From NCBI GenBank assembly GCA_905178155.1, contig CAJINV010000011.1, forward strand, positions 581,982 through 645,981: a stretch of DNA of 64,000 nucleotides, written 5' to 3'. This document shows, in pieces, positions 31,701-55,800 of the stretch. The notes beneath the pieces were generated by a model that was not told the DNA's origin, made no database searches, and worked only from the letters and a program-made list of their open reading frames with translations. The stretch comes from Amoebophrya sp. A120. Lineage: Eukaryota; Protista; Dinoflagellata. The position numbers and the translations under genes were made by a program. Each line of letters opens with the position of its first letter. Within the stretch, counting starts at the first letter, position 1.

Positions 31701-34700
31701 TTATACTCTGCCGGGTATAATCCGCCCCCCGTCGCTTCATCTTCCCCCGGGACTCCTGCTGCGCGGTCTTCCACAAGCAGTGGCGCTGCTTCCTCGTCTT
31801 CATTCGCAGGGGCCGATGTTCCTGCGCTCGCCGTGGTAGTAGTACCTCCGCTTGCTCCACTGGAGTAGAACATCCTGGCCCACAGCGAACCGAAAAACGT
31901 GGTAGATATTCTATGAAAAAACGTCCCCACCCCATAGTCAAGATGGGGATTTGGCTACACAAAGCGAGCATCTTTTGGCTGTCGCGCAAGACAAGTTTGG
32001 GCTCGCCGCGTCATCGCGTTTAGCTAGTGTAGCTGCATCACAAATCGATCCCCTTATGCTGCTTCTAGCATGACGCACTGCCAGACAGCATTACAGAATG
32101 CTCTTCAACATGGGGCTCTGCATGACAAACGTTTGAGGATGAGGCTTGCAGATTTGCATGACAACTCTGGGTTGGGGAGGTTTTTCCGCAGGATAGTAGA
32201 GGGCTTGGATACATCCACCGGATGGTCTTTGTTGTCCTCATCGGCGTCGGCGGTCGCGGTCGAAGCACCGTTTGCCGACTCGGCGGCTGGAAGTAGATCC
32301 GCAGCTGCAGATCCTCGTCTCTGCCGAAGCCCCTCTGGCGCGCCAACGTCGGAGATGGTCGTGTAGTCTTCGGTAATTATCATATCCGCAGCAGGTGTGT
32401 CAGAAGGACCACGCGCTGCCGCGTCCTCTCCATCATGGATCTCCTTCTCCTGCCCAGAAGCCGGGGTGGTGTCATTCTTCGCGCCAACATCTTCCATAAA
32501 AAAATTTCCATCCTCCTTCTGACCTTCCAGTTCACACGAGGTGAGTGCCAGGTTTACCAGCCGGTCCGTTTCCGAAAGCGCCATAACTTCTCCGACCGAC
32601 ACGGACTCCTCCGGCTCAGCTCCGCCTTTCGTCCGGCCCCGCTCCACGTCCAACACTTCTTCTTGCAAGTTCTCCTGCTCTTGTAGCGCCGTCGTTATAT
32701 TACCACTACCAGCGATTATTTCATCATCTTGCGCAAGCGGAGGACCTGCTGCAGCCGCACTGTCGCGCCCAGAAGTACTCTGCAGCGTCCTCTGCTGGGC
32801 ATCCGAAGAACTGTAGTTTTCGTTCGGCGCCTGTTGTTGTACTGACGGTGGCAGGAGACGCTGGAAGGGCCGTTCTACTACATCGTCGGGCTCGGGCTTT
32901 CTTGTACCATCTTCCACCTCGTCCTCCCCTCCGCGACTGAGAGACACGAAGCTCTTGTCCAGGAGGCTTGTGGCGACGTGTGGAAATAAGGGTAAAGCGT
33001 CCGACGGGGGCACCACGTGCCGTGCGTGCGGCGTGCCGGTCGGACTCGGATACAGCAAAGCATCGTCGTCGGTTCGTTTCGAATCGCTCCGACTCGCACA
33101 AGAACTGGAGGCGAGCGGGACCACTTGCGTGTATTTCGGACTCCCTGGGAGTTGTAGAGCTTCAGGTATGCAAGAAAAAAACTGCGTAAGTGTAACTTTG
33201 TAATGCAGAGCATGAAATAGAGGCACACCTGTCATGCCAGACAGCCACGAAGTCCTCTTTTGATGTGTGTTTTCCCTTACAAGCCACGCATGACAGGTTT
33301 TCGCTGTCATGTAGAGCATATTTGTGATGCTATCAGCCAAGGAAAGTTACACTGACACAGTTTTTTTCTTGGATAGCAGGACCGGAGTGTGGGGCTGCAG
33401 AAGTTATCATAGTACCATCATGATGTTGATCTAGTGCGCTGCTTTTATCGATAGTATAATTTTTGTCACTGCTCGCGAGAAGTGCAGCTGCGCGCGCGTC
33501 CTGTTCCTCCTCTTCGGCTAAAAAAGTGGCTTCTTCCTCCTGTGTGGGTGTCCAGCTGGCGTGCCGCATGGCGCGCACAAACTGCGGGCTGCGAGGGCCA
33601 GTACAACTACCAGGGTCGGCATGATCTCCGTCGCTTGTGTCGTCGTGAATTATATCAGTTGCACCTGAAGATGGGATTTGGATCATGAGCGCAGCAGGAG
33701 CTGCGGTTTTAGGTGCAACACCGGTTGTATCCTCCTCACCAGCAGCAACATCTTCGGACGACGAGGACGGCTTTTCTTGCGCCGTGTACAACGGCTTGCC
33801 ATCCGCGCCGTTAAGCTGAAGATCCGCTACCGTTACAACTGGCCCTGCCGGGAGATCCGAACTGGTGGCGGACTCTTCCCCGGTATGAAATGCAGCGACG
33901 TCTGGGTCTGGAATTAAAATGTGATGCTAATAAAAATTTGCGGATCTTCACAAATATGAAAGACACGCATGACAAGTTTCTGAGCGACTAGGTGTTCTTG
34001 TGTAAAACTGCATGAGAAACTGCGTTTCTGCATTACAAGAAAAGCAGCGCGGTAGCGCGACATGCACGACAGATCCTTGATCTTGTCTAATGTCAGCAGA
34101 GCATTACTTACAAGGCTTACAATCTCCCAGAACCAGACATATTTGCAGTGGATACCCGGGCTTGATCTCCAGTTCCTCCATCCGAGTAGTTCCCGCTGTA
34201 TATGAAGATGGGATTTGGATCATGAGCGCAGCAGGAGCTGCTGCTGTTTTAGGAACGGCGGTTCTTGTATTGTCACCAGGAGCAATAACATCCTCGGACG
34301 ACGAGGACGGCTTTTCTTGCGCCGTGTACTGCTCGCCACCTAAATCGTCCTGATCAACACCCTATGCACGGCAAACGGATCACAATCGTACAAATTGCAA
34401 GCATGCAAGACAAATCTGGTTCCGTACTTGAATCTGCATGACAAATTGCAATTTTCTTCTTGAGAAATTTATTATTATTTGTAATGCAATTTGTACTAGT
34501 GCGATGCTTTTGCAGTGCATACACCTCCTACGGTAGTCACAACTGGTCCTCCTGGCGGGAGGTCCGAACTGGTAGCGGACTCTTCGCCCGGCTTGATCTC
34601 CAGTTCCTCCATTCGCGGAATCGAGGTTGCGCGACCAAAAGACAGCAAATCGACATCTTCAACGATCCCCCCGTCGTCGCTACTAGTTGTACTGCTCTTC

Positions 34701-36478
34701 GCTTGCTTATCCAGAAAAGTAACAGTGGAAGTGTACCTTTGTAGGAAGGGCAGCATCACAAATTCGCTTTGCATTACAGGGAAATAAACCTGTCATGCGC
34801 AGCTAGTATATCCTCGAAGCGCGTACTTATGAAAGTGGGCTATGACGCACATCCAGCATGACAAGTGTCAAAATTTTGCATTTTCTGCACCACCGACTCG
34901 CACTCACACAGTTTTTTTTCTTGCATACTGCTCTACTTGGGACGGCGGTGCACCCTCCTCGGGACTGGACGCCGGCTTCGAGGGGATTTCCGAGTCCGGC
35001 GGTAATAAATCTAGCTCCGGGCTTTTTTTACTCGACGTGGCATTTTGATGCCTCTTGTCGCTCGTAGATGTCAAAGTCCCTGCTGGGCTTGTTGTGCCAA
35101 GAATTATAATCTTAGCATCGTCCACCTCCGCGGGCACCCTAGCTCCTTCGACATTGTGCACTAAAGTTGTAGGGGACCCTGCCTCCGCCCGATCGTGAAG
35201 ATCATCTTGTTCCTCTTCCGCATTCATCAGTACCGTCGCCTGATCATCATGATCATCTCCTTCTCCGCCCACTATCACACAGAAAAAAGCAGGCAGGTCA
35301 CATTTGTAATGCAAAAATAAACACGCCAAAAAATCTGTATTGCATACCCGGAACAGCATGCTATGTGGCCGCCCATGACAGATTTTTCTGCGTATTTATG
35401 TATGCATTACAAATCTGCCCTGCCTGCTTTTTTCTATGGGATACCCACCACAGGCTGCGCAGGCCGCGCGTTCTTCTCCGGTGCCGCCAGCAGTGGTGGC
35501 AGCGACTCCCGACCGGACCCGCTGCTGGACCGCCGCTTCGGGCGGGCGATTATCCAAGAAAAAAACGTTGCTAGTGTAAATTTGTGATGCGCAGCATGCA
35601 AATTGATTGCGCCGGTCATGCTGAGCCTGCATAGTAGGGTCCATTCAAGGGCGTTTCACGTACTATCTGCGCATGACAGGTTTTTGCTGTCACGCGAGAC
35701 ATATTTGTCATGCTAATCCTCCAAGAAAGTTACACCTATTTACAATCTTTTTTTCTTGGATAGCGATTACCTCGTCTTCACTGTTGAATTCCTCATACGC
35801 CTCCGGGTGGTCGGCGTTCGCGCGTTGCAGGATCGCCGTCGGGGAGGTCAACACCGTTTCTAGGGCGTTGAACAAAAGCTTTGCGGGTGCGCCGGCGTCC
35901 GTAGACGTGGCCGAGTCCTCTTCCCCAGCGGTGGACTTCGAGTCCGTTCGGGAAGAAATAACCGTGGGCACGCCTGCACGCGGAAGCTGTTGCCCACCCC
36001 CTCGTCCGCGCTGTTGTGCTAAGACGGAACTGCTGCTCGGTCCATAGCCTCCAAGAAGCGCTGATGACGAAGATAGTTGCAGGCCACTAGAAGTGGTGCC
36101 CGAGGTCGTGCCGGCCCGCAAGGTGGTACTACTACCTGGGAGTTGTGCTCCTGTCGTTGCCCCCGCCACCCACTCCGGCGGGCGCGGCGTGCCCCGGACG
36201 CTCGGGGGCACGGTGGTCGTGGCGCTCCGGGCGGACAGCAGCCCCGGCTCCGATTTGCCCTCCTGCACGAAACGGACGGGGGAAGATTCGCCCTCGTCCG
36301 GAATGACGGAATCGCCGCCGTCGTCATCGTAGCGGCTGTCCGAATCCTCCGCCCGGGCGGGAAGAAAACCAACATCTTCGGACGCGCGCGCGGGTTCTTG
36401 AGGCAGCTGTTCTCTTGAACCACGACTAGTACTGCTTTTGCCACCAGCGACAGAAAGGGGGCCCTCGTCTGTCATCAT
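16768..36478 (-). CDS. Giant membrane-associated protein: low-complexity N-terminus, PH-like, C2-like, transmembrane (Pex24p/MCTP-like) and DysF (peroxin/ferlin) domains; 22 introners plus at least one GT-AG intron
   Basis: All 22 introner junctions translate in frame. Motifs: LKQGVLWKKR...YYYSNSYEKETVRDIFPL (PH-like); IRFELFSQSPFADKGPQLLGYLEVPL (C2-like); VFENERR...GDPSEWCD...DVDGWRYA...VRRRHW (DysF); hydrophobic helices at about 23150-23330, 22450-22560 and 17930-18020. 3' end may extend further. Confidence 0.75.
17057..17277. mobile_element. Introner, family C (TIR TATGAGAGTGCACAACT)
   Basis: TIRs; left end TG instead of TA; flanks gtgcc/ttgcc. Confidence 0.85.
18150..18436. mobile_element. 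Introner, family A (diverged)
   Basis: TIRs; flanks acaga/acagg. Confidence 0.8.
19830..20275. mobile_element. Introner, family D (enlarged)
   Basis: TIRs; perfect TSD ttcgg. Confidence 0.8.
20696..20958. mobile_element. Introner, family A
   Basis: TIRs; left end CA; flanks agggg/acggg. Confidence 0.85.
21021..21293. mobile_element. Introner, family A
   Basis: TIRs; perfect TSD tgttc. Confidence 0.9.
22854..23125. mobile_element. Introner, family A
   Basis: TIRs; perfect TSD caaac. Confidence 0.9.
23367..23645. mobile_element. Introner, family B
   Basis: TIRs; perfect TSD acacg. Confidence 0.9.
24278..26543. mobile_element. Introner, family C, expanded to 2.27 kb by nested insertion(s)
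   Basis: tatgagagttgtgcacaa ... gttgtgcactgttata; flanks cggac/caaac; removal gives in-frame QERFG|QTEYQFPLVMAIKK. Confidence 0.75.
24752..26319. mobile_element. Non-autonomous TIR element (MITE/foldback-like) with (CGTT)n subterminal arrays
   Basis: Perfect TIR TATAGTTGGGGCTGAGTCCGTTACGGTTCGTT / AACGAACCGTAACGGACTCAGCCCCAACTATA; outer TA may be a TA TSD; no credible ORF. Confidence 0.85.
27998..28260. mobile_element. Introner, family A
   Basis: TIRs; perfect TSD ggtcg. Confidence 0.9.
28318..28572. mobile_element. Introner, family H
   Basis: Long TIRs; perfect TSD gtcgt. Confidence 0.9.
28628..28783. mobile_element. Introner, family F
   Basis: TIRs; flanks gaatc/gcacc. Confidence 0.8.
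29587..29781. mobile_element. Introner, family F (diverged)
   Basis: TIRs; perfect TSD gatgc. Confidence 0.85.
29821..29929. mobile_element. Introner, family I (TIR TATCCACAGAAAAA), 109 bp
   Basis: TIRs; perfect TSD cgggg. Confidence 0.9.
30313..30532. mobile_element. Introner, family C
   Basis: TIRs; perfect TSD aatgt. Confidence 0.9.
31003..31310. mobile_element. Introner, family J (TIR TATGG....GTCAGGTTTGAAATC.TCAAAGTTGAAATA)
   Basis: About 50-bp TIRs; perfect TSD cgctg. Confidence 0.9.
31907..32195. mobile_element. Introner, family B
   Basis: TIRs; perfect TSD gtaga. Confidence 0.9.
33167..33375. mobile_element. Introner, family K (TIR TAT.CAAGAAAAAAACTG)
   Basis: TIRs; flanks tcagg/gcagg. 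Confidence 0.9.
33884..34154. mobile_element. Introner, family A
   Basis: TIRs; perfect TSD cccgg; paralogous empty site at about 34578-34600. Confidence 0.9.
34363..34521. mobile_element. Introner, family F
   Basis: TIRs; flanks caccc/cacct. Confidence 0.85.
34708..34927. mobile_element. Introner, family K (diverged)
   Basis: TIRs; flanks ttgct/ctgct. Confidence 0.8.
35273..35443. mobile_element. Introner, family G (TIR TATC.CA.AGAAAAAAGCAGGCAG)
   Basis: TIRs; perfect TSD cccac. Confidence 0.9.
35551..35762. mobile_element. Introner, family K
   Basis: TIRs; perfect TSD gcgat. Confidence 0.9.
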
Positions 36479-36904
36479 GCGAGGGGAGCAGGGGAAAAGC
36501 GTAGGAGCTGAACCCTAGCACCTCCTGGGTAATGCCTTTGATAGCGCGTATGACATTAGAACAAGCTCTCGCAGACCGGTCGTAGAACGAGCTCTCGCAG
36601 AACTACAGATTTCTCTTTCCATACCTCCGAATAAACTACAGCGCGAGAAGAACAACACACCAGGATGAGCAACAAGAACAGCTTGATCTTCCCAATATCT
36701 TGACGCATACTCGGTGAGGCGAGTCTGTTCTGACCATGATCACAGTCAGAAGCTTTGTTTATCACTCTATCGAGCAAGGTGGATTTTGACAACTACAAGG
36801 GGAAAAATCAGTGCGGTTTTTCACGAATCTGTAGCAGTGTTGTATTATCTTCGTGCCGTAGCCAAGCTTAGTTTCCTAGAGCAGCTACGGGTTTATTTTT
36901 TCAG

Positions 36905-37035
36905 TAGTGCGTAGTTGTAGTAGTTTAGTTGCGCCAAGCAGAAAACTCATCAGAAGTGCTACACTCCTTACAAACAGAACAAGCGATGGCAACATCACCT
37001 GCTGTTAAGGTGCAGCTTCAGGATGTCCAGCACTA
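36905..37035. repeat. Intergenic dispersed repeat, second copy at about 40290-40430
   Basis: gtagtagtttag.tgcgccaa...aactcatcagaagtgctacac...acaaac present at both sites. Confidence 0.65.
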
Positions 37036-37939
37036 CGAAGAAAATAAAACACTGGAGGCGATGATTCTTGTTGGTTCTATTTCTAATCTTTGTGGCGTTC
37101 AGATGCACAGATGCTTGCTAGCTTGCAATGCTACGCACGGACCGATGCTAAACTAAACACGCGGAAGGTTCGAACATACACAAAATCTGCGTCAGCTTGT
37201 AAAAATGCATGGAGCAAGTATGTTCAAACTATTCGACTTCGACCCCTGTCGACCTGTAGACAAAACAAAAGCAGTCTCAGTGCTGGGGGTTTTCGGGAGC
37301 TTTATCTTTTGCGAGGACTAATATAGCGCTTGTAGTTGTTGGGGTTCCGGCTAAAGTAGATGCACGGAGGTCGAGTTCTCGCCCTTCTTCTTTTCTTCCG
37401 TGCCTGCAGCTTCTCTTGATCTTCGCGCATCCTCGCTGGCTGGCGTAGGAGGATATTTGTTTGTTTGTCAGTTGAGATTGGTCACATGGAACCAGTTGAA
37501 AGGTGTTCTTTCTTCTCATGTGTCAGTGTCTAGCGCTACTTCAATAAAAAGCACAACCTGGCGGAGCTGCTGTGGGGCCCGCCTTAGAAAAACTAACTGT
37601 ACCTGATGCTGGGAGCGCTAATTTTATAGAAAAACAGACCCTGTCTGGAAGACAAAAGGTGTGATGAATTGCTAGGAGAAGTCTTTTCATCTTCAAGACA
37701 TGCTGTTCAGAAATCAAAGCAAAGTCTTACTTTTTTTGTTTTTTTTTTTAAGAGCCTTGCTGCGTCGGTCAGCATCGGATCGTCTAAATCATATAGGAGC
37801 TTTTATAAGTACTTATGCTCCAACACAAGCCAGCTCGATTCCCGCTAGGGTAGATCTCCTGCTGGTAGTGCCGGAACTACTACTGGTAGGATCTCCCGCT
37901 GGTTCCTGGACATCCTGGAGCAAGGGCACCCGAGCAGCC

Positions 37940-39234
37940 TCAAGGGGACCGGAAGTAGCCGCCGGGGACCCATTCCCCCCCCCCCGCAAGAGCAGCAAAG
38001 GGGACCGGAACCAAGGGGACCACGTCGGAAATTGGATTTACCGGAAGTGCGCGACGAGTTGGAGAATATCCACTGCAAACATCCTGTCTGTGTGGGTCTG
38101 AAAGCTTGTGAAGCTGTCGTGGGTTGGCCAGGAATCAGAAACATCGGCGGCCATGCATGACAAGATTTTGGGCTGGTAGGTCTAATTGCCTGTTCAACAT
38201 CTACGTGCAGAACGAATAAAACGGCGCGCCCCATGCCATCATTTTGGGCAACGTGCGTGACAGCCTTGAAGGTCTTCTTCATGCTAGCCGATAATAGTAA
38301 GTGTTGCACTTATTCTTTTCCCGACCCAGACATCATGTTTGCATATGCATACAGGTGGAACCAGCGGCTTTGCTGCGTAGGAATTGATCATAGAAGCCCA
38401 CCGGTTCACCAACTGCTCGCTGCTAATATGCATGTTCCAAAGGTCACGGAAGTCACGGACAAAAGTGTCAAGCTGTGCGTGATTCCGCCATGGGGACTGA
38501 CGACCTGCAACCTTTTGGAGGCTAAGATGAGCCACCTGGTCATAAGGTTTGAATCTCCGCCACTTCATGGCTGTGCCGTGAGCCGTGAACCGCAAATGTG
38601 CCTGGTCGCGGTGGCCGTTGATCACGAGGGCGGCGAGAAAAGCTTTGTGCCCGAAACGCAAGGTTGGCGGATCAACAACTTTGTACCGCAAAGGGAGAGA
38701 AGGCGGCGTGGCGGACTTGTATTCCAACGTAATGCCAAAAGGACGGACCTGGTCGGGGCCGGGACGGGTCAGCGAAATGGGTGGCGAACGGATCAACGAA
38801 ATGGTCCAGTAAGCCGCTGGAAAATCGAACGATCCGCTCGTCGTCCGGTGCTTAAAGATATGCACGATAGTGCGGTCCTCGTTCTCGGAATTGTCCAAAA
38901 AGTAATACCACGGATGGGGGTCGGTCAAGTCATCCTTGAGTGACTCACGCAAGGATGAAAAAAGCAGGTTCTGTACCTCTTCTTCTCGCAGCTGCGGAGC
39001 TAAAGTGGCATCTATATTGAATGCCTCTCCAAGTCGTTTGACCTGATACTTCATCGTTGCCCCACGTAAGAAACCATGCTTGTTATACGCATCCTCGTAA
39101 TACGCAAGAAGTCCTTCCGCGCCCACATTCGTAACGGCTTCACGGTGTTCGGCGGTCCTGGACCGCAATGCGCTGACCACTGCCACCGTCGACAAGTGAC
39201 AAACGAGAGACATCGCAAGAAAACGCGCCGGCAT
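37940..39234 (-). CDS. Hypothetical protein with a possible N-terminal signal peptide; one introner
   Basis: 316-aa ORF with hydrophobic N-terminus; removing 38067-38351 gives LVPPA|TRRALPV...FRSP*. Confidence 0.55.
38067..38351. mobile_element. Introner, family A (old, TSD decayed)
   Basis: Diverged TIRs; flanks gagaa/caggt. Confidence 0.6.
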
Positions 39235-40638
39235 TTTCTTTGGTACAATGATGCGCGAGATGATCGATATGATGATAATGCTATGGATATCAATAGGAAC
39301 GAATCGTCCTAGATAAGATCTGACCCAGCTCCACTCGGTACGAAGATTCTACGTGTAGATGTTGGCCCTGGGCGGGTCAAGTGGGGAAATAAAGCCGAAT
39401 TACAATTCAAACAGAGTTGCGCTAAAAAGCGACGGCAAGAAGCACAGCTCCAATTGTCACAAGACCGCGCAGGTGTCGTACGTAATGATGTTGCCAGAAG
39501 TAGATGTGGTAGAAAGTGCTTGCTGTAGTTTGTTTGGTAGAAAGTGCTTGCTGTAGTTTGTATACTGTTTTCAAGCTTAAGAGCTAAGTTGGTGGCGGGA
39601 CGTCAAAGAGGGAACTGTTGCTGTGCGTTGTGAAAAGAGAATGCACTGCAGCCATCTTCTTCAAGTGCTACTAGATGGGCCGACTGACAAGAGATTACAA
39701 CTCCACTAAAAGAAATTGATCCCCGAAAAGTGCTTTTTCTGTTTCGTTGTTTCCATCAAATTCATCGTTTCACCGATATTGCAACATTTTCCTGAGTCGA
39801 TTTATCTCTCTTGTTTCAACATTTATTTTTACCGAGGAGAGAGATTCTGCTTAGTGCCTTCCGTCAAGGTCGCATTCATTTCGAAAAGGGCTCTTTCGTA
39901 TGATCTCCTCTATGATTTTTTTGTGAACTTCTTTCCATATTTCGAGCCACTCACATCAAAGATTTGTTTCCGCTGATCTCCTACATCTTTGGCCCAACCA
40001 TACCGAATAGCAATAGGAATAGACAAACCCAGAATGAAAGTAATAAACCAGGACGAAGAGCAACTAGAGCACTTTGATCATGCCTTCTTGACCAACATCA
40101 CGCATAGTCGGTAAGACGGGCCTGTGCCGACTCCACATGGTGGGTTCACGCATAGTCGGTAAGACGGGCAAGTACAAAAGGAAAAATCAATGCGGTTCTT
40201 TTTCAAGCAAATTGCTAGACAGCAGTGCATTTTGGCGCGGTAGAGCGAAAAACCTTCTTTATTTCGAGCGCTGATTCCCCAGCCAAGTGCGTACTTGTAG
40301 TAGTTTAGGTGCGCCAAATACAACTAGAGAACTCATCAGAAGTGCTACACCACTCACTTACAAACTGAGAACAAGTGATCAGGGCAACTACTTATATCGC
40401 CTGCTGTTGACGGAGGTTGCTCTAGGGGACGCAAGTAGAACACTTTCTTCTCTGCAAGAACTATGCCGTGTTTGTTGCCCCCGTAGATGGAATTGTTTAT
40501 CCTTTGTACTCAATTCCGAATTTCTGCACCTCATCTTCGAAGAATTTTGTTGCTTTGTGAGACGGTGAAACCAAAAACAGGCTGGTGTTGAGACTCTTCC
40601 TTCTTTTTCTAGGCTTCTTATGATTACACGACTGTGCG

Positions 40639-40868
40639 TATGAGAGTGCACAACCCCCCCCCCACGTCCCTCTCGTTCGCCATGCAAAAGTATACCATCT
40701 CCACACATTGCGTTGCCTCGTGGCACTTTTTGCATGACAAGTTCTAGCAGCCGAAACAGTGCGTACAATCCTGTGCAAAATTGTCATGCAAGACCTGCAC
40801 TGTTGGTGATGCTTGTATTGCTGCTCATGCCTTACACGCGAGGGGAGGGAGAGTTGTGCACTCTCATA
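40639..40868. mobile_element. Family C element outside any recognised CDS
   Basis: Perfect 16-bp TIR tatgagagtgcacaac; flanks gtgcg/gcgcc. Confidence 0.85.
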
Positions 40869-41740
40869 GCGCCTCAGAAAATTTTCATGCGAAGCGGTCG
40901 AGCACCAGATACTTATTTAAGTGGAATTTCGTGAAAGTCGTACATCTAAAAGGCCGTAGTACTGCTGCGAATGAAGATTTTTGAACATCGTTCTTGCAGC
41001 TATGCTAAAATCCGGAGGAAAGTTACTCTATCGACAAAACAGAGATGTTATATTCTACTTTAATAACCTGCGCGAAAGGGAAACGGTTCATGCGATCAGA
41101 TTTTTCATGTTCGATGAGATGAGTATGTTTTTTCGAAATAAAAGCTCGTCACTTTGTACACCTCTGCCGCCGGGAAAGATCCCGGGCGATGCAGACTGTG
41201 ACAGCTTTTTGACTGTACACGTCGATGTTTTTTTACGATCAGCTGTTTTAGTGATATTGCATAATTCCTGGTGGGAGTTGTTATCCTTACTAGACGAAAA
41301 ATTTTTTGTTGACATGTTATTATGCAGGATGATTTTATAGCTTGTCGTGATGAAACATGAAAATCCAGTAGTGCACTTCACTACATTTAGAGCTTTTATA
41401 ATACACTTTGCGGTTAATACTAACGTCATGCTGTAATTACTGTAGCAGTAAAAAAAGAAAATGACGGATTTTTACAAATTTGATTATCACTATTGTACAC
41501 GAAAAAAGTTCATAGCATATCGGCTTTCTATGTATACTGTAAATCAGATACCGCCTCTGCAAAACCTCCTGCTCCGACTTTTGTCTAGTGATACCACTAG
41601 CAATTTATTTTCAAGTCGAGACACAAGGGCTTAGAAATAACGCAGTCGATACACTGCGGGACGCCATAATTTCTTGTTTTACTGTAGTTCATCTTACGGA
41701 ACAAAGTCATAATAGTACTTATCCGGCGACCCATGCAGAC

Positions 41741-44700
41741 TTACGCCTGCACGTTGGCCATGGGGAACATGATGCACTTGACCTCGGTAAAGTTTTCCAG
41801 CGCGTATTCGGACTTTTCGCGACCCCACGCATATCCCACAGAAAGAAGCAGATGAAAGAGCGTATTTGTAAAATGCAAGTATAGAATGTACTTTACTTAG
41901 TTCTTGTGCATCCTAAAAAAACACAGCATGCTGACGGCTCGCCCATGACAGATTTTTATTTTCTGTCAGTTACTTTTTGCATCACAAGCATGCCCCGCCT
42001 GCTTTTTTTCTGTACGATAACCCGGACTCCTTGTAGCCGCCAAAGGGCACCGCGGCGTCAAATATGCATTGCAAATATGCCTGGGTCTGGAAGATTGCCA
42101 GGTTTGTTATGCATATTTTGCATGACCAATGACGCCTGTAATGCATGCCCTAGCATCCCAGATTTTTAGAAGTCTTCCTGATGCTTTTTCCGCATGAGAA
42201 ATGCCCTCCCCGTGTAGCACAAACTGGACTCCTTCTGCTAGTCACGCAATACCGATTTTTTTGGAATCCAAAGACAGCATCACAAGTTACCACCTTCCAG
42301 ACCCAGACAATGACAATTTTGCACTTGATATCAAAGTTGTCGTAGCAGTTGATCCACACGGTTCCGTATGAATTGCAAAAATACTTCTTTAGTCGCACCC
42401 GTACTCAATATGCAGACACGCATGACAAACACAAATCTTCTTCTCAAGGTGAAACAGCCTTACAAATTGCATTCGTCATGCTGAGCTACTTAATTTGTAA
42501 AATACTGAGCTACTTAATTCGTAATATACTACGTACGACTACACTTTTGCACTGCATATTCCGGCCTCCAACCGGCGCGCAATGCCCATCGCCTTCCCAA
42601 TGTCCGTGCAGCACACGCCCGCAGCCAGTCCGTAGTGCGTGCGATTGGCGCGGGTCACGGCGTACTTTATCCTCCGCAAAATTGTCCCCACCCCATACTT
42701 GGAATAAACTCTGCAACACAAATCGAGAAGTTTTGGGAAGCGGGCCTGCCAAGATTCTCCCTGTGTTGCTGTGCAGGTTAGCAAGGACAGCCGTAAATCT
42801 TCACAAAGCCGTCTCCCTAGCCTGCTTAGAGCATTGGATTGCAAACACCAAAACAACTGCCATGGAGGGGATGCGCATCTTCACATATGCTCCTGTAATT
42901 GCGAACCTGCATGACAACTCTGGGATTGTGGGGACGTTTTTACACTGGATATCCTGCGAAGATTATTTTAACATCATGCAGAGCAATACCATGAATGTGT
43001 TTTTCAAGGTTCTTGCACGAAACTTGAATCCAGACTCTCAGGCCGTACGCTTAACTCGTGCAGCGCTTGAGTCGTGCGCTTAAGCCGTGCGCTTAGGTCG
43101 TGCGCTTAAGTCGTGCGCTTAAGTCGTGCGCTTAAGCCGTGCGCTTAAGTCGTGCAGCGCTCCTGCCAACTTAAGCCGTGCGGCGGTTAAGTCGTGCAGC
43201 GGTGGAGCCATTCGCTTGGTTCGAAACCTCCTAACTCGTGCGGCGATAGAGTCGTGCGATTGAGTCGCTCAGCAGCGCTCTTAAGTCGTGCGCCTAAAAA
43301 CCCGTACAGCGGTTCAGTTGTGCGCTTGTTGACTCGTCCGATGGTTAAGTACTTAAGTCGTGCGCTGAACTCGTGCAGCGCTTATTAAAAAGCCGCGTGT
43401 AACTACTTAACGTTTAAGAAGTCGTGTGCCTAACAACTCGTGCGCTTTTACTGGTGTTGCACTGATAGGAGCGTGAAGAAGAGCGTAAGTACTTCTCATC
43501 AAAAGCTTAGTACCTCGATGCTGGAATACTTCTGCAGCTGCATGACCGGGCCAAAAATTTCTTCCTTCGCGATGGTCATGTCGTCCGTGACATCGCCAAA
43601 CACCGTGGGCTATCAAATGCAAATATGTCTGGAAGAGTGCAAGTTTGTCATGCAGCTTGTCTGGCATGAGTCTTAAATCTGTGACGTCGATGAGCAGGGA
43701 AAGGACCTCTTTCCTGTCATGCGAAAACGCAGTTTGTCATGCGAAAAACGAAACACACAGCACCGCAAAAACTTGCCATGCTGGGCTGCATATTCTTGTA
43801 GTGTCTTCCCACCACTCACAGATTTGCATCACAAGTTCTTTCCAGACGACCCAGACATATTTGCATTTGATATGGGCTTGATGAAGTAGCCACAGTCGCC
43901 ACGTCGCTCCCCGCCGGTGAGACACTTGGCGCCCTGCTCCTTTCCCCCCGCAATGTAGTTCAAAATCCTGTCAAACTGAATCTTGTCCACCTGGGGACCC
44001 TGCTCGCACCCCTCCTTGGTACCCATGGTGACCTGCTCCGCGCGCGCCACGCACTTCGCCGCGAACGCGTCGTAAATCGACTCGTGCACGAGAATGCGGG
44101 AGCTGGCGCAGCAGCACTGGCCCTGGTTCAGGAACAACCCGACGTGCGCCACCGCGGCCGCCTGGTCCAGGTCCGCATCCTCTACCACACAGAAAAAAGC
44201 AGGCAGGCCACATTTGTAATGCCAAAACAAATACACAAAAAAATTAGTATTGCATATCCTAAACAGCTATATGTTATGGGGCCGCCTGTCATGACAAATC
44301 TTTCTGTGTATCTATTTTTGCATTACAAATAATATGGCCCGGTGCCTGCTTTTTTCTCTAGGGTATCCTCCGTGATGATCAAGGAAGACTTTCCGCCCAG
44401 CTCTATCCTTAGTAAAAATGTCCCCACCCCAGAGTTGTCATGTTGGAATGCAGATTTGCGATGACAGGAATACTTGTAATGCGCATCTCCATGAGAGGCA
44501 TTACCAGTCGCGTTTTGAAATTTGTAATGCTGCAAACAGGATAAGAAGATGGATTTGTGACGCGGTTTTCCTTGCTAACATGCACTACACTACGGACTGC
44601 AACTTGTCATGCGTGGCTCCCAAAACTTCTGGATTTGTGTTGCTAAGTCCCCAACTTGACTCTGGTGTGGGGACGTTTTTACTCAGGATAAGCTCGAGCG

Positions 44701-46484
44701 TCACCTTCTTCAAGTTGCCCTGGCCCGACATCTCCACGATCTTGTGGCCCACCAGCGAGGACCCGGTGAAGCAGATCTTGGCAATGTCCGGGTGCTTCAC
44801 GATGGCGTCGCCGCACCCCGGTCCATACCCGGAAATCACGTTCAACACTCCCGGCGGGAAGCCCGCCTGCTTCGCCAGGTCGCACATCATCAAGGCGGTC
44901 AACGGGGTCTTCTATCCCATGTAAAAACGTCCCCACCGCTCCATGGTTGTGTGTCATGCAGAATTGCATCTACAGGGAGATCGAGAATTGTCGCGCGCAT
45001 CCCCATGAGAGGCACTTTTAGTCGTGCTTCAGAATTTGTGATGCTGTAAACAGGATGAGAAGATGGATTTGTGATGCGGTCCTCGTCCTTGCTAACCTGC
45101 ACCACAATTACGCTGAGATAAAAACTTGTCATGCGTGACTCCCAATAAAACTTCTGCATTTGTGTTGCAGATTTCCCATCTTGACTCTGCGGCGAGGGCG
45201 TAGTTTTTGCTCAGGATATCTTCTCCGAGGACTTCATCACGCAGGTGCAGCTATCAAATGCAAAAATGTCGAAACTTGTGACGCTGCGTTGGGAATAGGG
45301 AATGCCCTGCAATGCACAACCAAGCATGAGAAATATCGTCGCTTCTTTGTGGTGCGTTTTTGCATGACAGGCCTAAGGGTCTCTTCTTGGACACGCATCA
45401 CAAACTTTTTGGTCATCCCAGACAAGCATGACAAATCTCGCAGTCTTCCAGACCCAGACAGTTTTGCATTTGATAGCAGCCCGCCGCGAGCAGCGGACCC
45501 CACTTCCACGCCAGCATCAGGATGGGAAAGTTCCTATCAAATGTAAAAATGTCTGGGTCTGGAAGAGTCATGCTGTTTCTGCATGACACAGCAGGTCTGG
45601 CATGGAAGCTCTAGCATCACAGGTTTCGAGAAGCTTCCGCAATGCCGAACCTGCATGACAAATCCCCCACTTTGGTGACAGAAAGTGGGCAGCTTTTGCT
45701 ACCCATGCATGAGAGATTTTTGTGTGTTCTGAAATGCGCATGACAAGTTGCATTCTTCCAGACCCAGACATTTTTACATTTGATAGTTCCACGGGATCAC
45801 GCAACCCACCACGCCCACCGGCTCGTTATGAGAGTGCACAATCCCCCCTTCCCTCTCATTTGTATAGCAGGAGCGGCAATACAAGCGTCAGCAAGAATGC
45901 AGGTTTTGCATGACAAATTTGCACAGGATTGCAATGCTATTTGGGCTACCAGAACTTGTCATGCAAACAATGCCAAGACGAGGTATAGCTATAGCCTGGC
46001 ATTCTTGGTGTTTTGCATTACAAATGAGGAGGAGGCGGAGTTGTGCACTCTCATACTCGTGGACCGTCATCGCGAAGGTGTGCGGGTCCTCCGTCGGAAT
46101 GGTCTTCCCGCACATGCCCTTGTCCGCGAACCCCGCGTAGTACCGGAAGTGCTGGATGGCCAGTTGAATGTCCACATTCCGGGCGGTCGAAACTGGCTTG
46201 CCGTTGTCCAGCGACTCAACTTCGGCCATCTGCTGCTTGTTCTGCTCGAGCAGGTCGGCGAGCTTCAACATCATGTCGCGCCGGGCCGGTCCCCCGCAGT
46301 CGCGCCAGGTAAAGAAGGCCTGCTTCGCGGCCGCCACCGCCTTGTCGACATCGGCCGCCGTGCCCTTCGCCACCGAGGCGATCACCTTCTCGGTGGAGGG
46401 GTCGATGGTGTCGAAGGTGCCGCCATCGCTGGCGTCGCACCACTCGTTATTGATGAAATGCTGCGTGCGGATCTCCAACGGCAT
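41741..46484 (-). CDS. NAD(P)+-dependent aldehyde dehydrogenase (ALDH1/2-like); 11 introners plus one GT-AG intron
   Basis: Reconstructed motifs: [76 protein letters not shown]; stop TAA at 41743-41741. Confidence 0.97.
41832..42019. mobile_element. Introner, family G
   Basis: TIRs; flanks acgca/acccg; splits ESG|WGRE. Confidence 0.85.
42063..42330. mobile_element. Introner, family A
   Basis: TIRs; perfect TSD tcaaa. Confidence 0.9.
42367..42558. mobile_element. Introner, family F
   Basis: TIRs; perfect TSD ttccg. Confidence 0.9.
42668..42951. mobile_element. Introner, family B, adjacent to a canonical acceptor
   Basis: TIRs; flanks tactt/tcctg. Confidence 0.85.
42954..43513 (-). other. 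Canonical GT-AG intron of the ALDH gene
   Basis: GAG|GTACTAAG ... TTCGCAG. Confidence 0.8.
43040..43445. repeat. Intronic minisatellite, unit about 13 bp (CTTAAGTCGTGCG)
   Basis: Many tandem degenerate copies. Confidence 0.9.
43611..43872. mobile_element. Introner, family A
   Basis: TIRs; perfect TSD tgggc. Confidence 0.92.
44183..44365. mobile_element. Introner, family G
   Basis: TIRs start TACC; perfect TSD tcctc. Confidence 0.92.
44404..44690. mobile_element. Introner, family B
   Basis: TIRs; perfect TSD agctc; splits the catalytic LEL|GGKS motif. Confidence 0.95.
44913..45218. mobile_element. Introner, family B
   Basis: TIRs; perfect TSD tcttc. Confidence 0.92.
45252..45475. mobile_element. 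Introner, family A
   Basis: TIRs; perfect TSD gcagc. Confidence 0.92.
45535..45785. mobile_element. Introner, family A
   Basis: 32-bp perfect TIR; perfect TSD gttcc; splits PWN|FP. Confidence 0.95.
45827..46055. mobile_element. Introner, family C
   Basis: 15-bp perfect TIR; perfect TSD ctcgt; splits VHE|PVG. Confidence 0.95.
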
Positions 46485-47529: not shown

Positions 47530-47640
47530 CCGGGCGGGGGCCGGACCGGGTGGCAGGGCGGGGGCCGGACCGGGTGGCCGGGCGGGGGCCGGACCGGGTG
47601 GCAGGGCGGGGGGCGGACCGGCGGGGGCAGGACTGGGTGG
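47530..47640. repeat. GC-rich 24-bp tandem repeat (GGGCGGGGGCCGGACCGGGTGGCA)
   Basis: Three to four tandem copies, G-run rich. Confidence 0.85.
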
Positions 47641-48590
47641 CCAGCGCAAAATGCCGCACGTTGACTCACCACAGGCACACAATCTCGCACAGCGCCCAGA
47701 CAAAGTAGTAAAATATGGCACGGCGGCTGTTCAAAGTAGCAGAATACGGTCTCTTGCCCAGTCAAAGTCGGAAAATCTGGCACATTACCGGGTCAAAGTA
47801 GCAAAATCCGAGGCGTTGACCGGTCAACTTCGCAAAATCTGGCACGTTCAACGGCCAAAGTTGCAAAATCTGGCATCTTGAGCAGTCAAACTCACAAAAT
47901 GTTGGATGTTGAAAAATTGCAGTTGCAAGATCTGCCACGTTCAATGGCAAAAGTTGCACAATTTGGCATCTTAAACGGCCAAAACCGCAAAAACATCGCA
48001 AAGCATTGCCTATTCACTACAAAAATTTGGAAAATCCTATGTGTTAACCGGTAAAAATTGCAAAATCTTGCTTATTGACCACCAAAACTTGGAAAATGTG
48101 GCGGCTTGACTGATCAAAATCGAAAAATCTTGGTAATTGACAAGCCAGAATCAAAAATTATGGGCATTTTACCGGCAAAACGTGCAAAATATTGGAGAAA
48201 ATTGCAAAATATAGCAAATTCATTGGCTCAAGTGGGAAAATCTGGCACATTGGCCGCCGAAAATTGAAAAATATTCCACATCAACTGGCCAAACTTGTAA
48301 AATAATACATATTAAGTGGCGAAAATCCTGAAATTTTGCGCACTTATCAACCAAAGTTGTGCAATTTTGCACCAAACGTGGCCAAAGTTGCAAAGTCTTA
48401 CGCGCTAACTCGCCAGGGTTGCAACATTTTGCAAATTTACCAGCTAAACTCCGAAAATTGTTCAGAGTCAAAGACAAAAGTTAAGCAATATTGCATAAAA
48501 AAGGCAAGAGCGTTGTAATGTTGCACAAGTTCACTGAAAAAATGTGAAATCTTGCTGATTGACTTGCCAAAATCGCAAAGCCCTCAACTC
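47640..48590. repeat. Degenerate satellite with a period of about 33 bp (CAAAGTTGCAAAATCTGGCAC.TTGACCGGT)
   Basis: Recurrent gcaaaatctggca and aaagttgca motifs at regular spacing. Confidence 0.7.
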
Positions 48591-49873: not shown

Positions 49874-52800
49874 ATGAATCCGCTGCGGCACTTCCTGGAG
49901 GCGCATCCCAAGTACAACCCCGACCAGACCACGCGCGCCGATGACCTTCGCCAGGCCCAGAACGAGCTGCGACGGTGTTCGCGATGCGCGGACGGCGTGT
50001 CCACCAACCAAGCGCGGCTGCCGAAGCAGGAGGTATGCAATGCCAATGCAAAAGTATCGTACTCGTATAAATGCATTACAAATTTCCTCAGGATGAGAAA
50101 TAAAATTTGTAATGCGAATTTACCTTAAGATGAAAATTTCTAATGCATGACTGCAATACGAGTACGATACTTTTGCACAGGATAGGAGGGACCGTGGGAC
50201 GATGCTGCGTGCATCGACGAGCTGGTGCAGAACATGGACGACCACGTATCAAAAGGAAAAATTCCCCCTCCCCATATCAAAACGAAGTTTCTGATGCTGG
50301 ATTTGCGTACACAAATCAGATTTGTCTTGCTGGAGAGGATTGCAGGCCTATACTAAGCCTGAGTAGAGAGGTTTTCTGCTAGACGCTAAGCATGGCAAAC
50401 GCCTAGTCTGTAGGGCCAACAGCATCACAAACCGCCTGCAGAATGCGGCGGAGCCTGTGTAGTTTCGGCCCTGCAAGACAGAGATGATTTGAGGTCACAA
50501 ATGAGCATTACAAATTTCCTGAGACGTGCCTTTTCGATATGGGGAGGGGGGATTTTTGCTTACGATACCACGTGCGGCTGATGAACCAGAATGCGCACGC
50601 TATCCTGTGTAAAAACGTCACCTCCACCCCAGGGTCAAGCGGAAAGCCTAGCAACGCAGATCCAGAAATTTTGGGTACCAATTTTTTATATCCGTGTAAA
50701 ATAGGAAAATATGCGTGCGCACTAGACAAGTTTGGGCGAGCACTTTGATCTGATGTTTTGCTAGTGCCGCCGCATGAATAGATTATAAAGCGACTCGTGA
50801 AGATTCTAGCCCAGGACAAACTCCCCGGAGACAGCATTGGAAAAGGCGGCCTGTCATGTGGCTGCGCATGAGAAACTTTTTAGGCATGCCGATTTGCATG
50901 ACAGCTCTCGTCGGTTGGGGACTCCGGCGTTTTTCCCCAGCATACACGTCGAATTTACGGAGCCGGAGTTCGCCGTTTGTACAGTCAGGACGACCACTAC
51001 TCGCCGGCTGTACTACAGCCACACGTCGCGGTTTCGCCCGCAGTTCGGGTACTTGCTCCGTTGTTCTCCTGTTTCTTCATCTACTACCGCAGAAGGAGTA
51101 GAACACCGAAAAAGTAGTAGACCCCCGCGGAACGGCGCACTTAGTGCTGCAACTACACATGATAGTAGTACTGCTGCTTCCAACAAGAAGCACCGCCTCG
51201 GGTGTCTCGGGGTCTCCTCCGATTACATCTACCTGCTTAACTACGAGACGTGTTTCCGCCCGCGGAACTTGGTGGTGGGCTACACGGGGGAAGAGAAGCG
51301 GGAAACGTGTCAAGCCCGGAAGCTGGCGTATCACAGTGAAAAATGCCCCCACCCCCAAAGTTGCAATAATTTGTGATGCGAAGTTTCCAAGTGAAAACTT
51401 TTTGTCATGCCTGAAAGGAGTGTAAATCTTTCTGATTCAGATTCTAGGCGTAAATAGCATCGTTCGGATGACAAGCGACGCTCTTGCTGGGATCTTTTGC
51501 AATGCAAATTTTTGCTATTCACGAAGATGGAAAGTCTGTGACGCTGATAGACGCAAAAGGGCGAGTGTTTCAGGTGGAAAGGTTTGCAATACGAATGCTC
51601 CCAAGTTCGGGGGTGGGGGCGTTTTTTATGGTAATATGGCGAAGGGGAAATTCGGCGACGGGCTGAACAGCTCCATCAACCGGCTTTTGTCGTCCTCCTG
51701 TAAGGAAATGAAGCGGTCCGTGGAAATTTTCACGTGCGGTTGGCGCTACACGTTTTTCTTCAGCGACAAAGCGAGTCCGACGGGGGTCGAGACTTTAGCC
51801 TACACGGTGGAGCCTTTTGATATGTATAACACACCACCACCAGCTGCGGGGACCACGCGGGGGAGTAGTAGTAGTGTTTGCGGGATGAACAACAATCGAA
51901 ATAGCTGTGGTTCTTTCCCACCGGAGCTTGATTTCGATGCGAACAGCGATACTTTAGTCCGTATCTACGCCCCCCAGTTCCAGTTCGACTACAGTCGGTA
52001 TCTGTTCTTCCTGCGTTCTGATAAGCACGGCAAAAGTAGAAATCCGATACTAGTATGAATTGCATCTTCACAGACTTTCTCTCAGCATGAAAAATTGAAT
52101 TTGCAATGCTGATTAGCGTGGTACAGAGGTAGATCTGTCTTGCTGATGCATGCTCGCGATTACTACAAATGCGATGCTTTTGGAGTGCATATCTGACCAG
52201 GTGTTGCAGCTCGTTGTAAAAAAGCCGGAGATGATATTGAATCATGCTAATTCATCTCGGGCTAGCGGAAAGCAAATTCTCTTGGATGTTGCCAACAAGA
52301 AGGCCGACCACTCCCACCACGACGAAGAGGTTTTTGACGCAGCCCCGCCCAGAATGCAGGTGGAGGTGCTTGCCAGCGTCGAAACCCGCAACCGCATGTA
52401 CGTGAAGGGTATGGTCGTGATCGATCGGAACCGCCGGAACGGCACCGGGCCCCGCCTGCGTAACCTCATGTTCGGGTACAACCTGGTTGATTTCGAGATG
52501 CGCTACCGCGACCGACAGGAGAGCCTGTCGTTGCAAGATCAGCAGGAGGCCGTGACGCTCGGGTGGCACGCGCTGCGAGACAACAAACCGGCCATGAGCA
52601 ATTTGTTTGAAGCGCTGCTGGGGCATGAACTCTGTTTCGAGCTCCAGGTGCTGTCCGAAAACGTCTGCGAGGAGACGAAGGAGATCTGTGTATCCTAAGG
52701 AAAAACATCCCCACCCGAGAGTCAAGATGGGGATCTCGCAACACAAGCCAAGAAGTTTTGGGAGTCACGCATGACAAGTTCCTCTCTGTATTGTAGTACA

Positions 52801-55800
52801 GTTTAGCAAGCGCAGCCGCATCACAAAGCCATCTGCTCATCCTCTTTGCAGCATTACAGAGTCCAAAACACGATTGCAAACGCCTCTCATGGGGATGCGC
52901 GTTACAAATTTTCCTGTGACTGCAAATCTGCATGACAACTATGGGGTTGGAATATAGTGGCCGGGAGATGATGGTGATGGCACTTTGGTGTCCGCCTGAC
53001 CCACCCGCCCTGCGTCTCAAGCCATCTGCGGCCATGGCACAAAGGGGGGGCAAAGTGCGTCGCATTTTGTTTAGCATGACAACTATGGGGTGGGGACGTT
53101 TTTACTCAGGATACTGTGTTGCGATGAAGGCAGCGTTTGCGGAGAAGTACGGGGTAATATGCGAAGAAAAAAGTGTTACAGTTACTTACAAACTCTGATG
53201 CAAGACCAGCAAGAGAGATAACCTCTGTCGTGCAGGAAATGCTTTCCAGCCTCATTTCATGCGTGTTCTTTTCCCTTATCGTCTGCGCATTACAAGTTTT
53301 CTTCGCTACGCGGTAGAGCGACTTCGTGATGCTGAAATTGCAACGAATGTGGAACTGTAACACTTTTTTCCTGTGATAGGTAAATGCAAGACCCTACTGC
53401 GATGAAAAGACGAAGGCGGCGATCGAGAAATTACAGCTGCTGCCGCAGAAGGTATAAAAGGGATCATATATTTTTTCAGTGCTGAATGAAGATGCTAGGT
53501 ATAAAAGCTATGCTCTAATTTCTGCTATTCAAAATTTTTTAAAAATCTCACTGCAGTGTTTGCGAATCAATGCTATTTTTTTACCTGCACAAAAAGAAAC
53601 CCAGGTTCCCCTCCCTCTCATGCGCCTTCTCCAGAACCTCTTTGTCTCCCCGGAGCGCGAGCTGGAGACCCAAAATTCCGCCAAGCTCATCAAGTCCCGG
53701 CACGTGCGGCACTCGCAGCGGGACAAGACCTATCGCGGTCTGTACAGCGCGCTGCAAGCCGCGGTGGAATCGTGCGTGGTCGCTCCGGAAGACGATGTGA
53801 TTGACGACCCGATCGAGTCCAGACAAAATCGGCTCCCGCAACTCCACCTCCGCGACGGGAAGCACATCCAACTCTCCGCCTGCGTGCGAGGCGAGGAGCG
53901 GACGGAGTTTTGGCTTTCTGGATTTCTGAAATACCCGTATTTAAACCGGGGGTACAAACTGGACGAGGAAAAACTATGCATTGCAAAGGTATGATCGTAC
54001 TAGTATAAATCGCATGACAAATTTCCTCAGCGTGAGAAATGTAATGCGGTTTTCACTTGACAAAAAAATTTGTAATGCATGACAGCGATTGCTACGAGTG
54101 CGATACTTTTGCACAGGATAAGAGCCGTGGATCAACAATTGTCCGGTGTTTTGGGCGTGCCGGGACACCCGGAACGTGCCCCACACGAACGGCAGGTTCG
54201 AATACTTCCTCTACTTTGACGGCCACCGGTACTGCATCCAAGCGGCGAACAAACTCCACGACGTGCAGGCGGCGCGGCAAACGTACCCCCTAGCGGAACT
54301 GGTCACCACCGATCTCCCCTGGTGGGCGCCCCGCACGCAGTGGCGGGAGCTTCTGGGGGAAAGGTTGCCGACGAAGAAGGTGGAGGCGAAGGATTTCGAT
54401 GCAAAGCCGGTGGAGGTCACGGCGACAGCAGTTCTTGGAGGAAGACAAAATGCTGAAAGAACACAAAAATCTTCACACAGAACCACCGGCTCCTGTACAA
54501 CACAACAACACGATAGTAGGTTCGATGTTTACGTCAACTGGGACTGCTTTCTCGAAGTTCTGGAGGCGGAAGAGGAGGAAAATTTCGAATTGAACAAAGA
54601 CCTGGCATGCATCCAGCTCGCGGCCGCCTCTGATTTTGCGAAGGACGTTCTGCAGAAGGTACGGGACGGCTTGGGGAAACTACGCACGATCGCGTTAGCG
54701 CAACACGACTGGGACGAGATCTCGAAAAGGGCGCAGGACCGCCTCATCAAAATGTTCATCCCGATGGACGAACAAAATAAATCGCGAGTAGCAGCGGACG
54801 AGGTTCATCTTGCACCAGAAATAATAAACATTAATGAAAATAAGAACAAAAACCGCAGCACAAGCACAACTTCAAGCTGCCTCGAGGACCCTGCGTTAAT
54901 ATTACTGCAGAAGTCCACCTTGGCCAAGTTCCGTTCCACCGACGTTCAGCAGCAGCTCGCGAACTTCGTCGCCGAGCTATTGAGAGGAAAAATCCCCCCT
55001 CCCCATATCGAAAAGGTATGTTTCCGAAAATTTGTCTTGCTGATTTGAGACCACAAATCACGTTTGTCTTGCAAGAAGACAACTCCACAGGCTCTGCCGC
55101 ATCATGCAGGCGGTTTGTGATGCTGTTGGGCCTACACCATAGACGTTTCTCATGCTAAGCGCCTAGGCCACAACTTCTCTACTCAGGCTTGGCAGGAGCC
55201 TGCAGTCCTCTACTGCAAGACACACGTGATTCGTGTACGCAAATTCAGCATCAGAAACTTCCGTTTGATATGGGAAGGGGGGATTTTTCCTTGTGATGCG
55301 AGCAGCTTGCGCGGAAAAAGCTGTGGCTGGACCGGGGAAGCAATACAGATGAAGAAGATGATCCGGATAAAATGCTACTCGGCGACGCGTATGGATTGCA
55401 AATATGTCTGGGTCTGGAAGAGTGGAACTTGTAATGCTGTCTGCGGATTCTAAAAATATCTGTGTTGCATGAGCAGCAAGAGGACTCAGCTTTTGGCACG
55501 CGGAGAGGGCGTGTCTCATGCGTAATTAGCATCAAGAGGCTCTCAAAATCAAAAAATCTGTGTTGCTAGCACCAGCATCACAGACCTCACGGGTCATGCA
55601 AAATGTGCATGACAAGCCCCGACTCTTCCAGACCCAGACATTTTTGCAGTTGATACCGCGGTCTTGCGGTTCTTCACGGCGCTGCAGTGCTTGAAGTCGA
55701 AGCATAGTGTCCACGAAACGGAGGCGATCGACCAGTATCTGTGGAGCGAGGAGTGTCTCGGGAAGAGCTTGTACAAGGACCTCCGGTACACCATTGGGCA

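Follow-up and report, generated by a model that had tools for sequence, protein, structure and literature searches.

Introners with decayed duplications suggest a single cut register for non-GT-AG introns of Amoebophrya sp. A120

We analysed a 64 kb stretch of DNA (the window) from the marine parasite Amoebophrya sp. A120, in which the coding frame of an aldehyde dehydrogenase (ALDH) gene, on the minus strand from 46484 to 41741, is broken at 11 places by one introner each. The 11 inserts are introners as described by Farhat et al. 2021 (PMC7789003), and since the element class and the gene model had both been published or annotated before, the observation in itself serves as an illustration. 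What is new is that four inserts with decayed duplications, two in this gene and two beside its coding region, serve as rulers and point to one cut register: the intron likely begins 1 nt ahead of the 5' repeat and ends 4 nt beyond the 3' repeat, and would thus consist of 1 nt, then TAT...ATA, then 4 nt. On balance, we consider the best explanation to be that introners are removed from pre-mRNA by a cut measured from a terminal hairpin, and not by GT-AG ends or by matching of the duplication. At stake is the way in which roughly 60% of the introns of A120 are excised in the absence of GT-AG.

The host gene is an ordinary aldehyde dehydrogenase. Removing from 41741-46484 each introner core plus 5 nt, together with one 560-nt GT-AG intron, joins 13 exon pieces into 1455 nt, which encode 484 aa and a stop with 0 internal stops; the product is identical to NCBI CAD7962752.1 of the same organism (model GSA120T00023213001), with a 100% match in exon 1. 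The protein has a full PF00171 domain (E 1.5e-173), its nearest solved structure is the mitochondrial ALDH2 (1a4z, E 1.5e-164), and it retains the motifs PWNFP, FTGS, EEIFGP, LELGG (Glu254) and GQCCC (Cys288). Judged by sequence it appears to be a typical ALDH1/2 enzyme, like them in the full domain, the catalytic Glu and Cys and the cofactor motifs, with no notable difference; 17 relatives align to it at 51-74% identity. For each of the five relatives tested, drawn from 80 ALDH loci found in a metagenome scan, the proportion of differing synonymous sites (pS, 0.67-0.76) far exceeds that of nonsynonymous sites (pN, 0.23-0.30), the corrected synonymous distance (dS) being 1.7-2.8 in three and saturated in two. 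The 80 loci are 54-64% identical to the A120 gene and include no close relative, and hence no orthologous empty site. A nearer comparison comes from X9, an estuary metatranscriptome containing a wild relative, in which both listed coding differences are synonymous and about 180 nt of untranslated region (UTR) hold 10 differences and a 6-nt insertion. That the gene is expressed and under purifying selection is thus supported. An earlier note, made from the sequence alone, had anticipated much of this: the 11 introners in five families, the full-length product free of stops and frameshifts, the two catalytic residues, the resemblance to ALDH1/2 and the purifying selection were all borne out.

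The 11 ALDH introners are 183-306 nt long, start with TA(T/C) and finish with (A/G)TA, and their outer 14 nt match at 10-14 of 14 positions in every case. Most show a motif of TAT, seven variable nucleotides and an A-run, and 10 of 11 have AAA at positions 11-13; introner 6 begins with TAC, and the family of introner 1 is without the A-run. Each is flanked by a 5-nt duplication, perfect in nine and with two mismatches in introners 8 and 11. We define the register s as the number of bases of the upstream copy that fall inside the intron; tabulated element by element, none of the 11 reads GT-AG in any of registers 0-5. Five families were recovered by BLASTN clustering (introners 2, 3, 7 and 10; 4, 5 and 8; 6 and 11; 1; 9), which replaced a global alignment of the 11 elements that scarcely told families from shuffles. 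Family copies are 64-93% alike; ten of the 11 introners cluster with other elements in the window, and introner 9 is linked to another family by no more than a match of 53-55 nt. Each of the traits of Farhat et al. that we tested is present in the ALDH inserts: RNA-backed non-GT-AG ends, inverted repeats, direct repeats, the TAT motif and families.

The window holds 54 introner-like elements of 109-423 nt, which amount to 13.3 kb or 21% of it. Their duplication is 5 nt long, mean identity between copies being 0.90 at length 5 and 0.25-0.33 at lengths 2-4 and 6-8; it is perfect in 36, with one mismatch in 11, two in six and three in one, so that 18 of 54 have at least one mismatch and are potential rulers. 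In a first scan 37 of 43 window candidates had 0-2 duplication mismatches, against 1 of 8 in five Markov-shuffled windows pooled. Because the scans required or favoured TA ends, the conservation of these ends is partly built in. The 5' TA is always kept, and the 3' end departs from TA in four elements (4523-4783, 20696-20958, 54978-55298 and 55846-56071; ATG in three, ACA in one).

With terminal inverted repeats (TIRs), a fixed 5-nt duplication and a length too short for a transposase, the 54 elements have the features of miniature inverted-repeat transposable elements (MITEs), that is, non-autonomous TIR transposons; in the available text of PMC7789003 no transposase is reported in A120. By eye, an internal gene duplication near 33680-34700 supplies a paralogous site that lacks the element at 33884-34154; no such empty site was found for the ALDH elements. 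Each internal copy of this minus-strand gene has its own introner (33884-34154 and 34363-34521) that the other copy lacks, so the insertions came after the duplication. X1 contigs placed at 34154 and 45535 show that somewhere in the genome two element ends lie 6 nt apart, an arrangement in which the exon between these adjacent introners would be about 1 nt long.

Removal of the ALDH introners is seen directly in RNA for 9 of 11 (introns 3-11), in cDNA-based runs of up to three studies. Raw reads of X13 give one joint each for introns 5-11 (17-79 reads), with no alternative joint listed at a 2% share and introns 1-4 uncovered; contigs of X3 and X6 give joints for introns 3-11, those of 3 and 4 being seen there only; and one X9 contig spans intron 6. 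The exons of the gene were not covered in runs X11 and X12; X10, which made up a small share, was left aside, and the 2020 runs, which may underlie the assembly, were not counted as independent of it. All cores are given here on the minus strand. Introner 1, of the TATGAGAGTGCACA family, lies at 45827-46055 between copies of ACGAG, and introner 2, of the TATCAAATG family, at 45535-45785 between copies of GGAAC; X3 contig 14 bridges 44176 and 46056 with 369 nt, the exact exon sum with introns 1-6 all removed, from which we infer splicing of these two. Also of the TATCAAATG family are introner 3 (45252-45475, GCTGC/GCTGC; joint 45246-45476 in X3 and X6), introner 7 (43611-43872, GCCCA/GCCCA; X13 with 50 reads, X3, X6) and introner 10 (42063-42330, TTTGA/TTTGA; X13 with 54 reads, X3, X6). 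The TATCCTG family includes introner 4 (44913-45218, GAAGA/GAAGA; joint 44907-45219 in X3 and X6) and introner 5 (44404-44690, GAGCT/GAGCT; X13 with 36 reads, X3, X6). Introner 6 occupies 44183-44365 (GAGGA/GAGGA; X13 with 17 reads, X9, X3, X6) and introner 9 occupies 42367-42558 (CGGAA/CGGAA; X13 with 79 reads, X3).

Precise removal at the RNA level is, in our view, close to certain. In the DNA-like run X1, whose coverage is even, the contigs across 37542-42090 and 42280-43667 are unspliced and show 0 differences; among the X1 joints counted, not one of the listed RNA joints occurs. The RNA runs contain retained forms, listed at two sites and accounting there for about 2% and 5% of contig depth, yet the runs have zero depth in intergenic bins. 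The TA boundaries of the elements recall the internal eliminated sequences of ciliates, and the elements might accordingly be cut from DNA, or the gene might be a dead pseudogene; both ideas are already contradicted by the X1 contigs, by the retained forms against a background free of intergenic signal, by pN far below pS and by the synonymous coding changes of the wild relative beside its divergent UTR, and we give them almost no weight.

Exactly where the cut lies is hidden wherever the duplication is perfect. In 9 of the 11 introners the junction can slide 5-6 nt and leave the mRNA unchanged, as seen in those seven of the nine for which a joint is listed, so the protein reports only the loss of core plus 5 nt and not the exact junction. 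The earlier note had proposed the conserved protein as a ruler for exact junctions, which fails for these nine; the idea of a ruler does work for decayed duplications, two of them in the coding sequence and two outside 41741-46484. Introner 8 (42668-42951), of the TATCCTG family in the orientation opposite to 4 and 5, has the decayed copies CAGGA/AAGTA and allows registers 0 and 1 (X13 with 42 reads, X3, X6). Introner 11 (41832-42019, CGGGT/TGCGT) allows registers 0-2 (joint 41826-42020, both = 2; X13 with 42 reads, X3, X6). A further introner, absent from the earlier note's coordinates, lies at 40639-40868 on the same strand in what is likely the ALDH 3' UTR; it belongs to the family of introner 1 in opposite orientation, has the copies GGCGC/CGCAC and allows registers 0 and 1 (joint 40633-40869, both = 1; X13 with 45 reads, X3, X6). 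The fourth, in the neighbouring gene at 38067-38351 (minus strand, ACCTG/TTCTC, three mismatches), allows registers 1-3 (joint 38062-38353, both = 2; X13 with 231 reads, X3, X6).

All four rulers lose exactly core plus 5 nt despite 2-3 mismatches, and only s = 1 fits the four together. The skip in the neighbouring gene is 290 nt and that in the UTR 235 nt, each core plus 5, and in the UTR a perfect CGC repeat touching both ends would have given 233; no ATG-started frame spans the UTR joint. At s = 1 the base at +2 is U and that at +3 is A in 54 of 54 window elements, with no fixed base at +1 (G 18, C 15, A 11, T 10) or at the two final positions, so that the intron would begin N-U-A, like GU-A. 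The 3'-only departures from TA fit a constrained donor, although their number is small and the scan favours TA. That the cut position is set from the element ends rather than by repeat matching seems likely to us; a fixed +1/-4 register is a narrower claim, which we hold to be about evenly balanced.

The use of introner 8 as a ruler rests on the reading of interruption 8, which at 849 nt is a composite of a GT-AG intron, two bases and an introner with a duplication that takes in the former CAG acceptor. We suggest that it is removed in two steps, one taking out a canonical-looking GT...CAG intron of 560 nt (42954-43513, minus strand), the other an introner that would have landed 2 nt into the next exon; separate splicing of the first half would leave a putative exon piece of 1-2 nt (GA, 42952-42953, minus strand; joint 42663-43513, both = 0). 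The gene therefore has 12 introns and not 11. The earlier note named ten junctions for its 11 elements and missed this canonical intron; the 11 interruptions it described are real, and its precise excision of non-GT-AG introns is supported, with RNA joints seen for introns 3-11, within a set of 12 of which one is GT-AG. Its lower limit of about 30 nt for exons agrees with the shortest ordinary exon (28 nt) and not with the 1-2 nt exon that the composite implies. Treating interruption 8 as one 849-nt GT-AG intron, one base off, would give Tyr where the mRNA codon is Asp (42 X13 reads, X3, X6), and was ruled out. A 13-nt tandem repeat array with inverted copies lies inside the canonical intron (window 43050-43380).

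These observations can be joined into a mechanism. MITE-like DNA transposons would insert either way round, duplicating 5 bp of target, as their anatomy suggests. In the transcript the TAT...ATA repeats are predicted by folding to pair and so to join the ends; mean predicted terminal pairing probability is 0.74-1.0 in 10 of 13 elements folded with their flanks, and single folds gave z = -1.8 and, for the UTR introner, z = -6.8. Core plus 5 nt is then removed, the length being shown by the joints and the position presumably as above. Members of two families are spliced in either orientation, and the signal is accordingly likely to reside in their symmetric ends; and because 1 + 4 equals the length of the duplication, any fresh insertion would restore the exon exactly, whatever its target or orientation. 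The catalyst would probably be a U2-type spliceosome, reported to be without detectable U1 small nuclear RNA (snRNA), with the donor relaxed to N-U-A (U at +2, A at +3) and the acceptor taken by distance and not by AG; we regard this spliceosomal route as a candidate with somewhat better than even prospects.

A number of points weigh against this reading. Predicted terminal pairing is weak in 3 of 13 elements that are nonetheless spliced (introner 10, 0.01; introner 9, 0.07; the neighbouring-gene introner, 0.30), and mismatches of G-U and A-C type in the repeats (37 vs 25, p = 0.16) give no clear sign of selection for pairing in the RNA. All of the RNA evidence is reverse-transcribed, and X13 has template-switch adaptor ends and looks like an amplified low-input library, so that its reads are not independent and may derive from few molecules. 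A hairpin with a short direct repeat is the signature of false introns made by template switching, and artefacts of the reverse transcriptase could in principle produce such joints in any cDNA-based run. We think this very improbable here: the unspliced gene has stops and frameshifts whereas the spliced product is a full ALDH aligning with 17 relatives, retained forms make up just about 2% and 5% of depth, elements with weak folds are skipped too, and the UTR skip passes over a better repeat.

The rulers themselves are only four, and the chance of one register being common to four such sites is 0.16. Only a single site excludes register 0, and at that site register 1 produces, as it happens, a GT donor. 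The aligner BLAT shifts junctions of ambiguous position toward GT-AG. In Table S4 of PMC7789003, in the part available, T stands at +2 in 9 of 9 top A120 motifs and 9 of 9 top A25 motifs, a pattern that fits s = 1 in A120 and a +2 U/+3 A rule shared with A25 but that may reflect aligner bias, as the authors used BLAT. Mismatches at duplication position 5 also occur at 33167-33375, 34708-34927 and 50601-50944. At 33167 and 50601, homolog searches gave no match, a search of representatives gave two A120 fragments that stop short of the junction and one unrelated repeat protein, and RNA depth was low with no joint among those listed.

Introner 8 counts as a ruler only under the two-step reading, within which its registers 0-1 hold. 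Interruption 8 might instead be lost in one step, as an 849-nt TA...GT intron or as GT-AG with U-to-G editing, and would then be no valid ruler; the reads show a single 849-nt skip, and among the joints listed there is no half-spliced form, only a fully retained one (X3 depth 18.7 vs 871.7). We judge removal in one step to be decidedly the weaker account. The 5' end of the 849-nt piece is unpaired with its 3' end, whereas the internal TATCC start at 42951 pairs (10 of 14), the CAG acceptor lies exactly where the duplication predicts, and two-step removal yields the observed product only at registers 0-1.

The crossover in 4 of 4 rulers also falls in the 3'-most block of matching bases, which equally fits a cut guided by the direct repeats, one that floats to wherever the copies still match near the 3' end and has no fixed register. 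The allowed registers coincide with that block in all four, duplications are perfect in 36 of 54 elements, and in the available text of PMC7789003 the position of splice sites with respect to the hairpin is said to vary. We nevertheless find guidance by repeats unlikely, since removal is efficient with as little as one matched base at the crossover (introner 8 and the UTR element) and longer matched blocks go unused (positions 2-3; the CGC repeat in the UTR). Nor is the decay of the duplications, 26 of 270 positions, obviously below expectation for families 64-93% alike.

A hairpin-measured cut need not be spliceosomal. A structure-specific endonuclease with a ligase, or a ribozyme-like activity, has been proposed for the nonconventional introns of euglenids, which in the part of PMC11282704 available to us are reported to have offset stems and to leave as circles and not lariats. 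In A120 the free +1 base, the free acceptor dinucleotide and the reported failure to detect U1 snRNA (PMC7789003) would suit such a catalyst. The same source reports U2, U4, U5 and U6 and 83 of 89 spliceosomal proteins in A120, register 1 yields the U at +2 and the A at +3 that canonical donors have, and a conserved internal fold across families was not seen, though no search was made for one; we therefore hold a non-spliceosomal catalyst improbable. Euglenid introns resemble those of A120 in their non-GT-AG ends, a terminal stem set back from the junction, duplication-like repeats and a catalyst that is not known, as far as the available text goes (PMC11282704). They differ in pairing +4 to +6 with -8 to -6 and in a pyrimidine/purine junction consensus, whereas the A120 stem would start by pairing +2 with -5 with junction bases free; the ALDH introners have neither that junction consensus nor the CAG/CTG stem, their ends being TAT/ATA. 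The ends of canonical U2 introns, GT-AG, are likewise absent from the 11 introners and present, by sequence, in 42954-43513. Fritillaria borealis offers a parallel in the MITE origin and massive gain of non-canonical introns (PMC11282704, PMC7789003, in the parts available), but it keeps preferred ends, AG-AC and AG-AT, attributed to the spliceosome, and A120 prefers no acceptor dinucleotide.

The accessible text of Farhat et al. 2021 (PMC7789003) reports that more than 60% of A120 introns are non-canonical and without a clear splicing signature, and describes many families of elements with inverted repeats of 8-20 nt starting with TAT and an A-run, direct repeats of 3-5 nt and RNA support. 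The ALDH inserts share with them organism, annotated gene, non-canonical ends, TAT inverted repeats, direct repeats, families and RNA support. There, repeats of 3-5 nt and sites variable relative to the hairpin are given, and the position of the border 'remains unknown', hidden as it is by the direct repeats; in the window all 54 elements have a duplication of 5 nt, and four that have decayed lead to one register. Gozashti et al. 2025 (PMC12130899) report transposon-derived introns, with tens of introners within single A120 genes, and in the portion available treat the origin and classification of introners and not the cut position of non-canonical A120 introns. Introns of Amoebophrya ex Karlodinium and of AT5 are mostly canonical, according to the passages available. 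A literature search, which did not cover subscription journals or bioRxiv supplements and reached some sources only in part, found no paper fixing the A120 cut position.

We tentatively suggest, with slightly less confidence than in the fixed register, a general rule for A120: the hairpin would set both cuts, only U at +2 and A at +3 would be fixed, the acceptor would follow by distance, and each insertion would be born a perfect intron, perhaps as also in A25, whose repeats start TTA. If this is true, the 'no splicing signature' of A120 introns would be one hidden signature. A fixed +1/-4 rule, if true, would define the substrate of an uncharacterised splicing activity, would explain the harmlessness of these transposons inside conserved genes and would show that an acceptor can be chosen by its distance from a stem. 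Since 18 of 54 window elements have mismatched duplications and about 30,000 such introns are reported in the genome, thousands of rulers are to be expected in existing DNA and RNA data.

The ALDH transcript has an apparent 3' UTR of at least 1 kb (window 40500-41740), X3 and X6 contigs linking the intron 11 joint to that of the UTR introner, and a 113-aa ATG frame lies inside this region. The neighbouring gene (37235-39536) is well expressed and has a single intron; it encodes 334 aa after splicing, and its first exon has no Pfam match. Nearly all X13 reads, or all of them, disagree with the window at 38446 and 40603, and the run may represent a sibling strain. At 36783-37276 very deep X3 and X13 RNA cover with loose ends on both sides likely marks a transcribed repeat present elsewhere in the genome. 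A degenerate array of about 19 copies of a 31-nt unit occupies 47532-48581, at an apparent change of gene orientation from minus to plus strand, and a separate region of 53-nt repeats rich in CGTT/AACG lies at 24770-26301.

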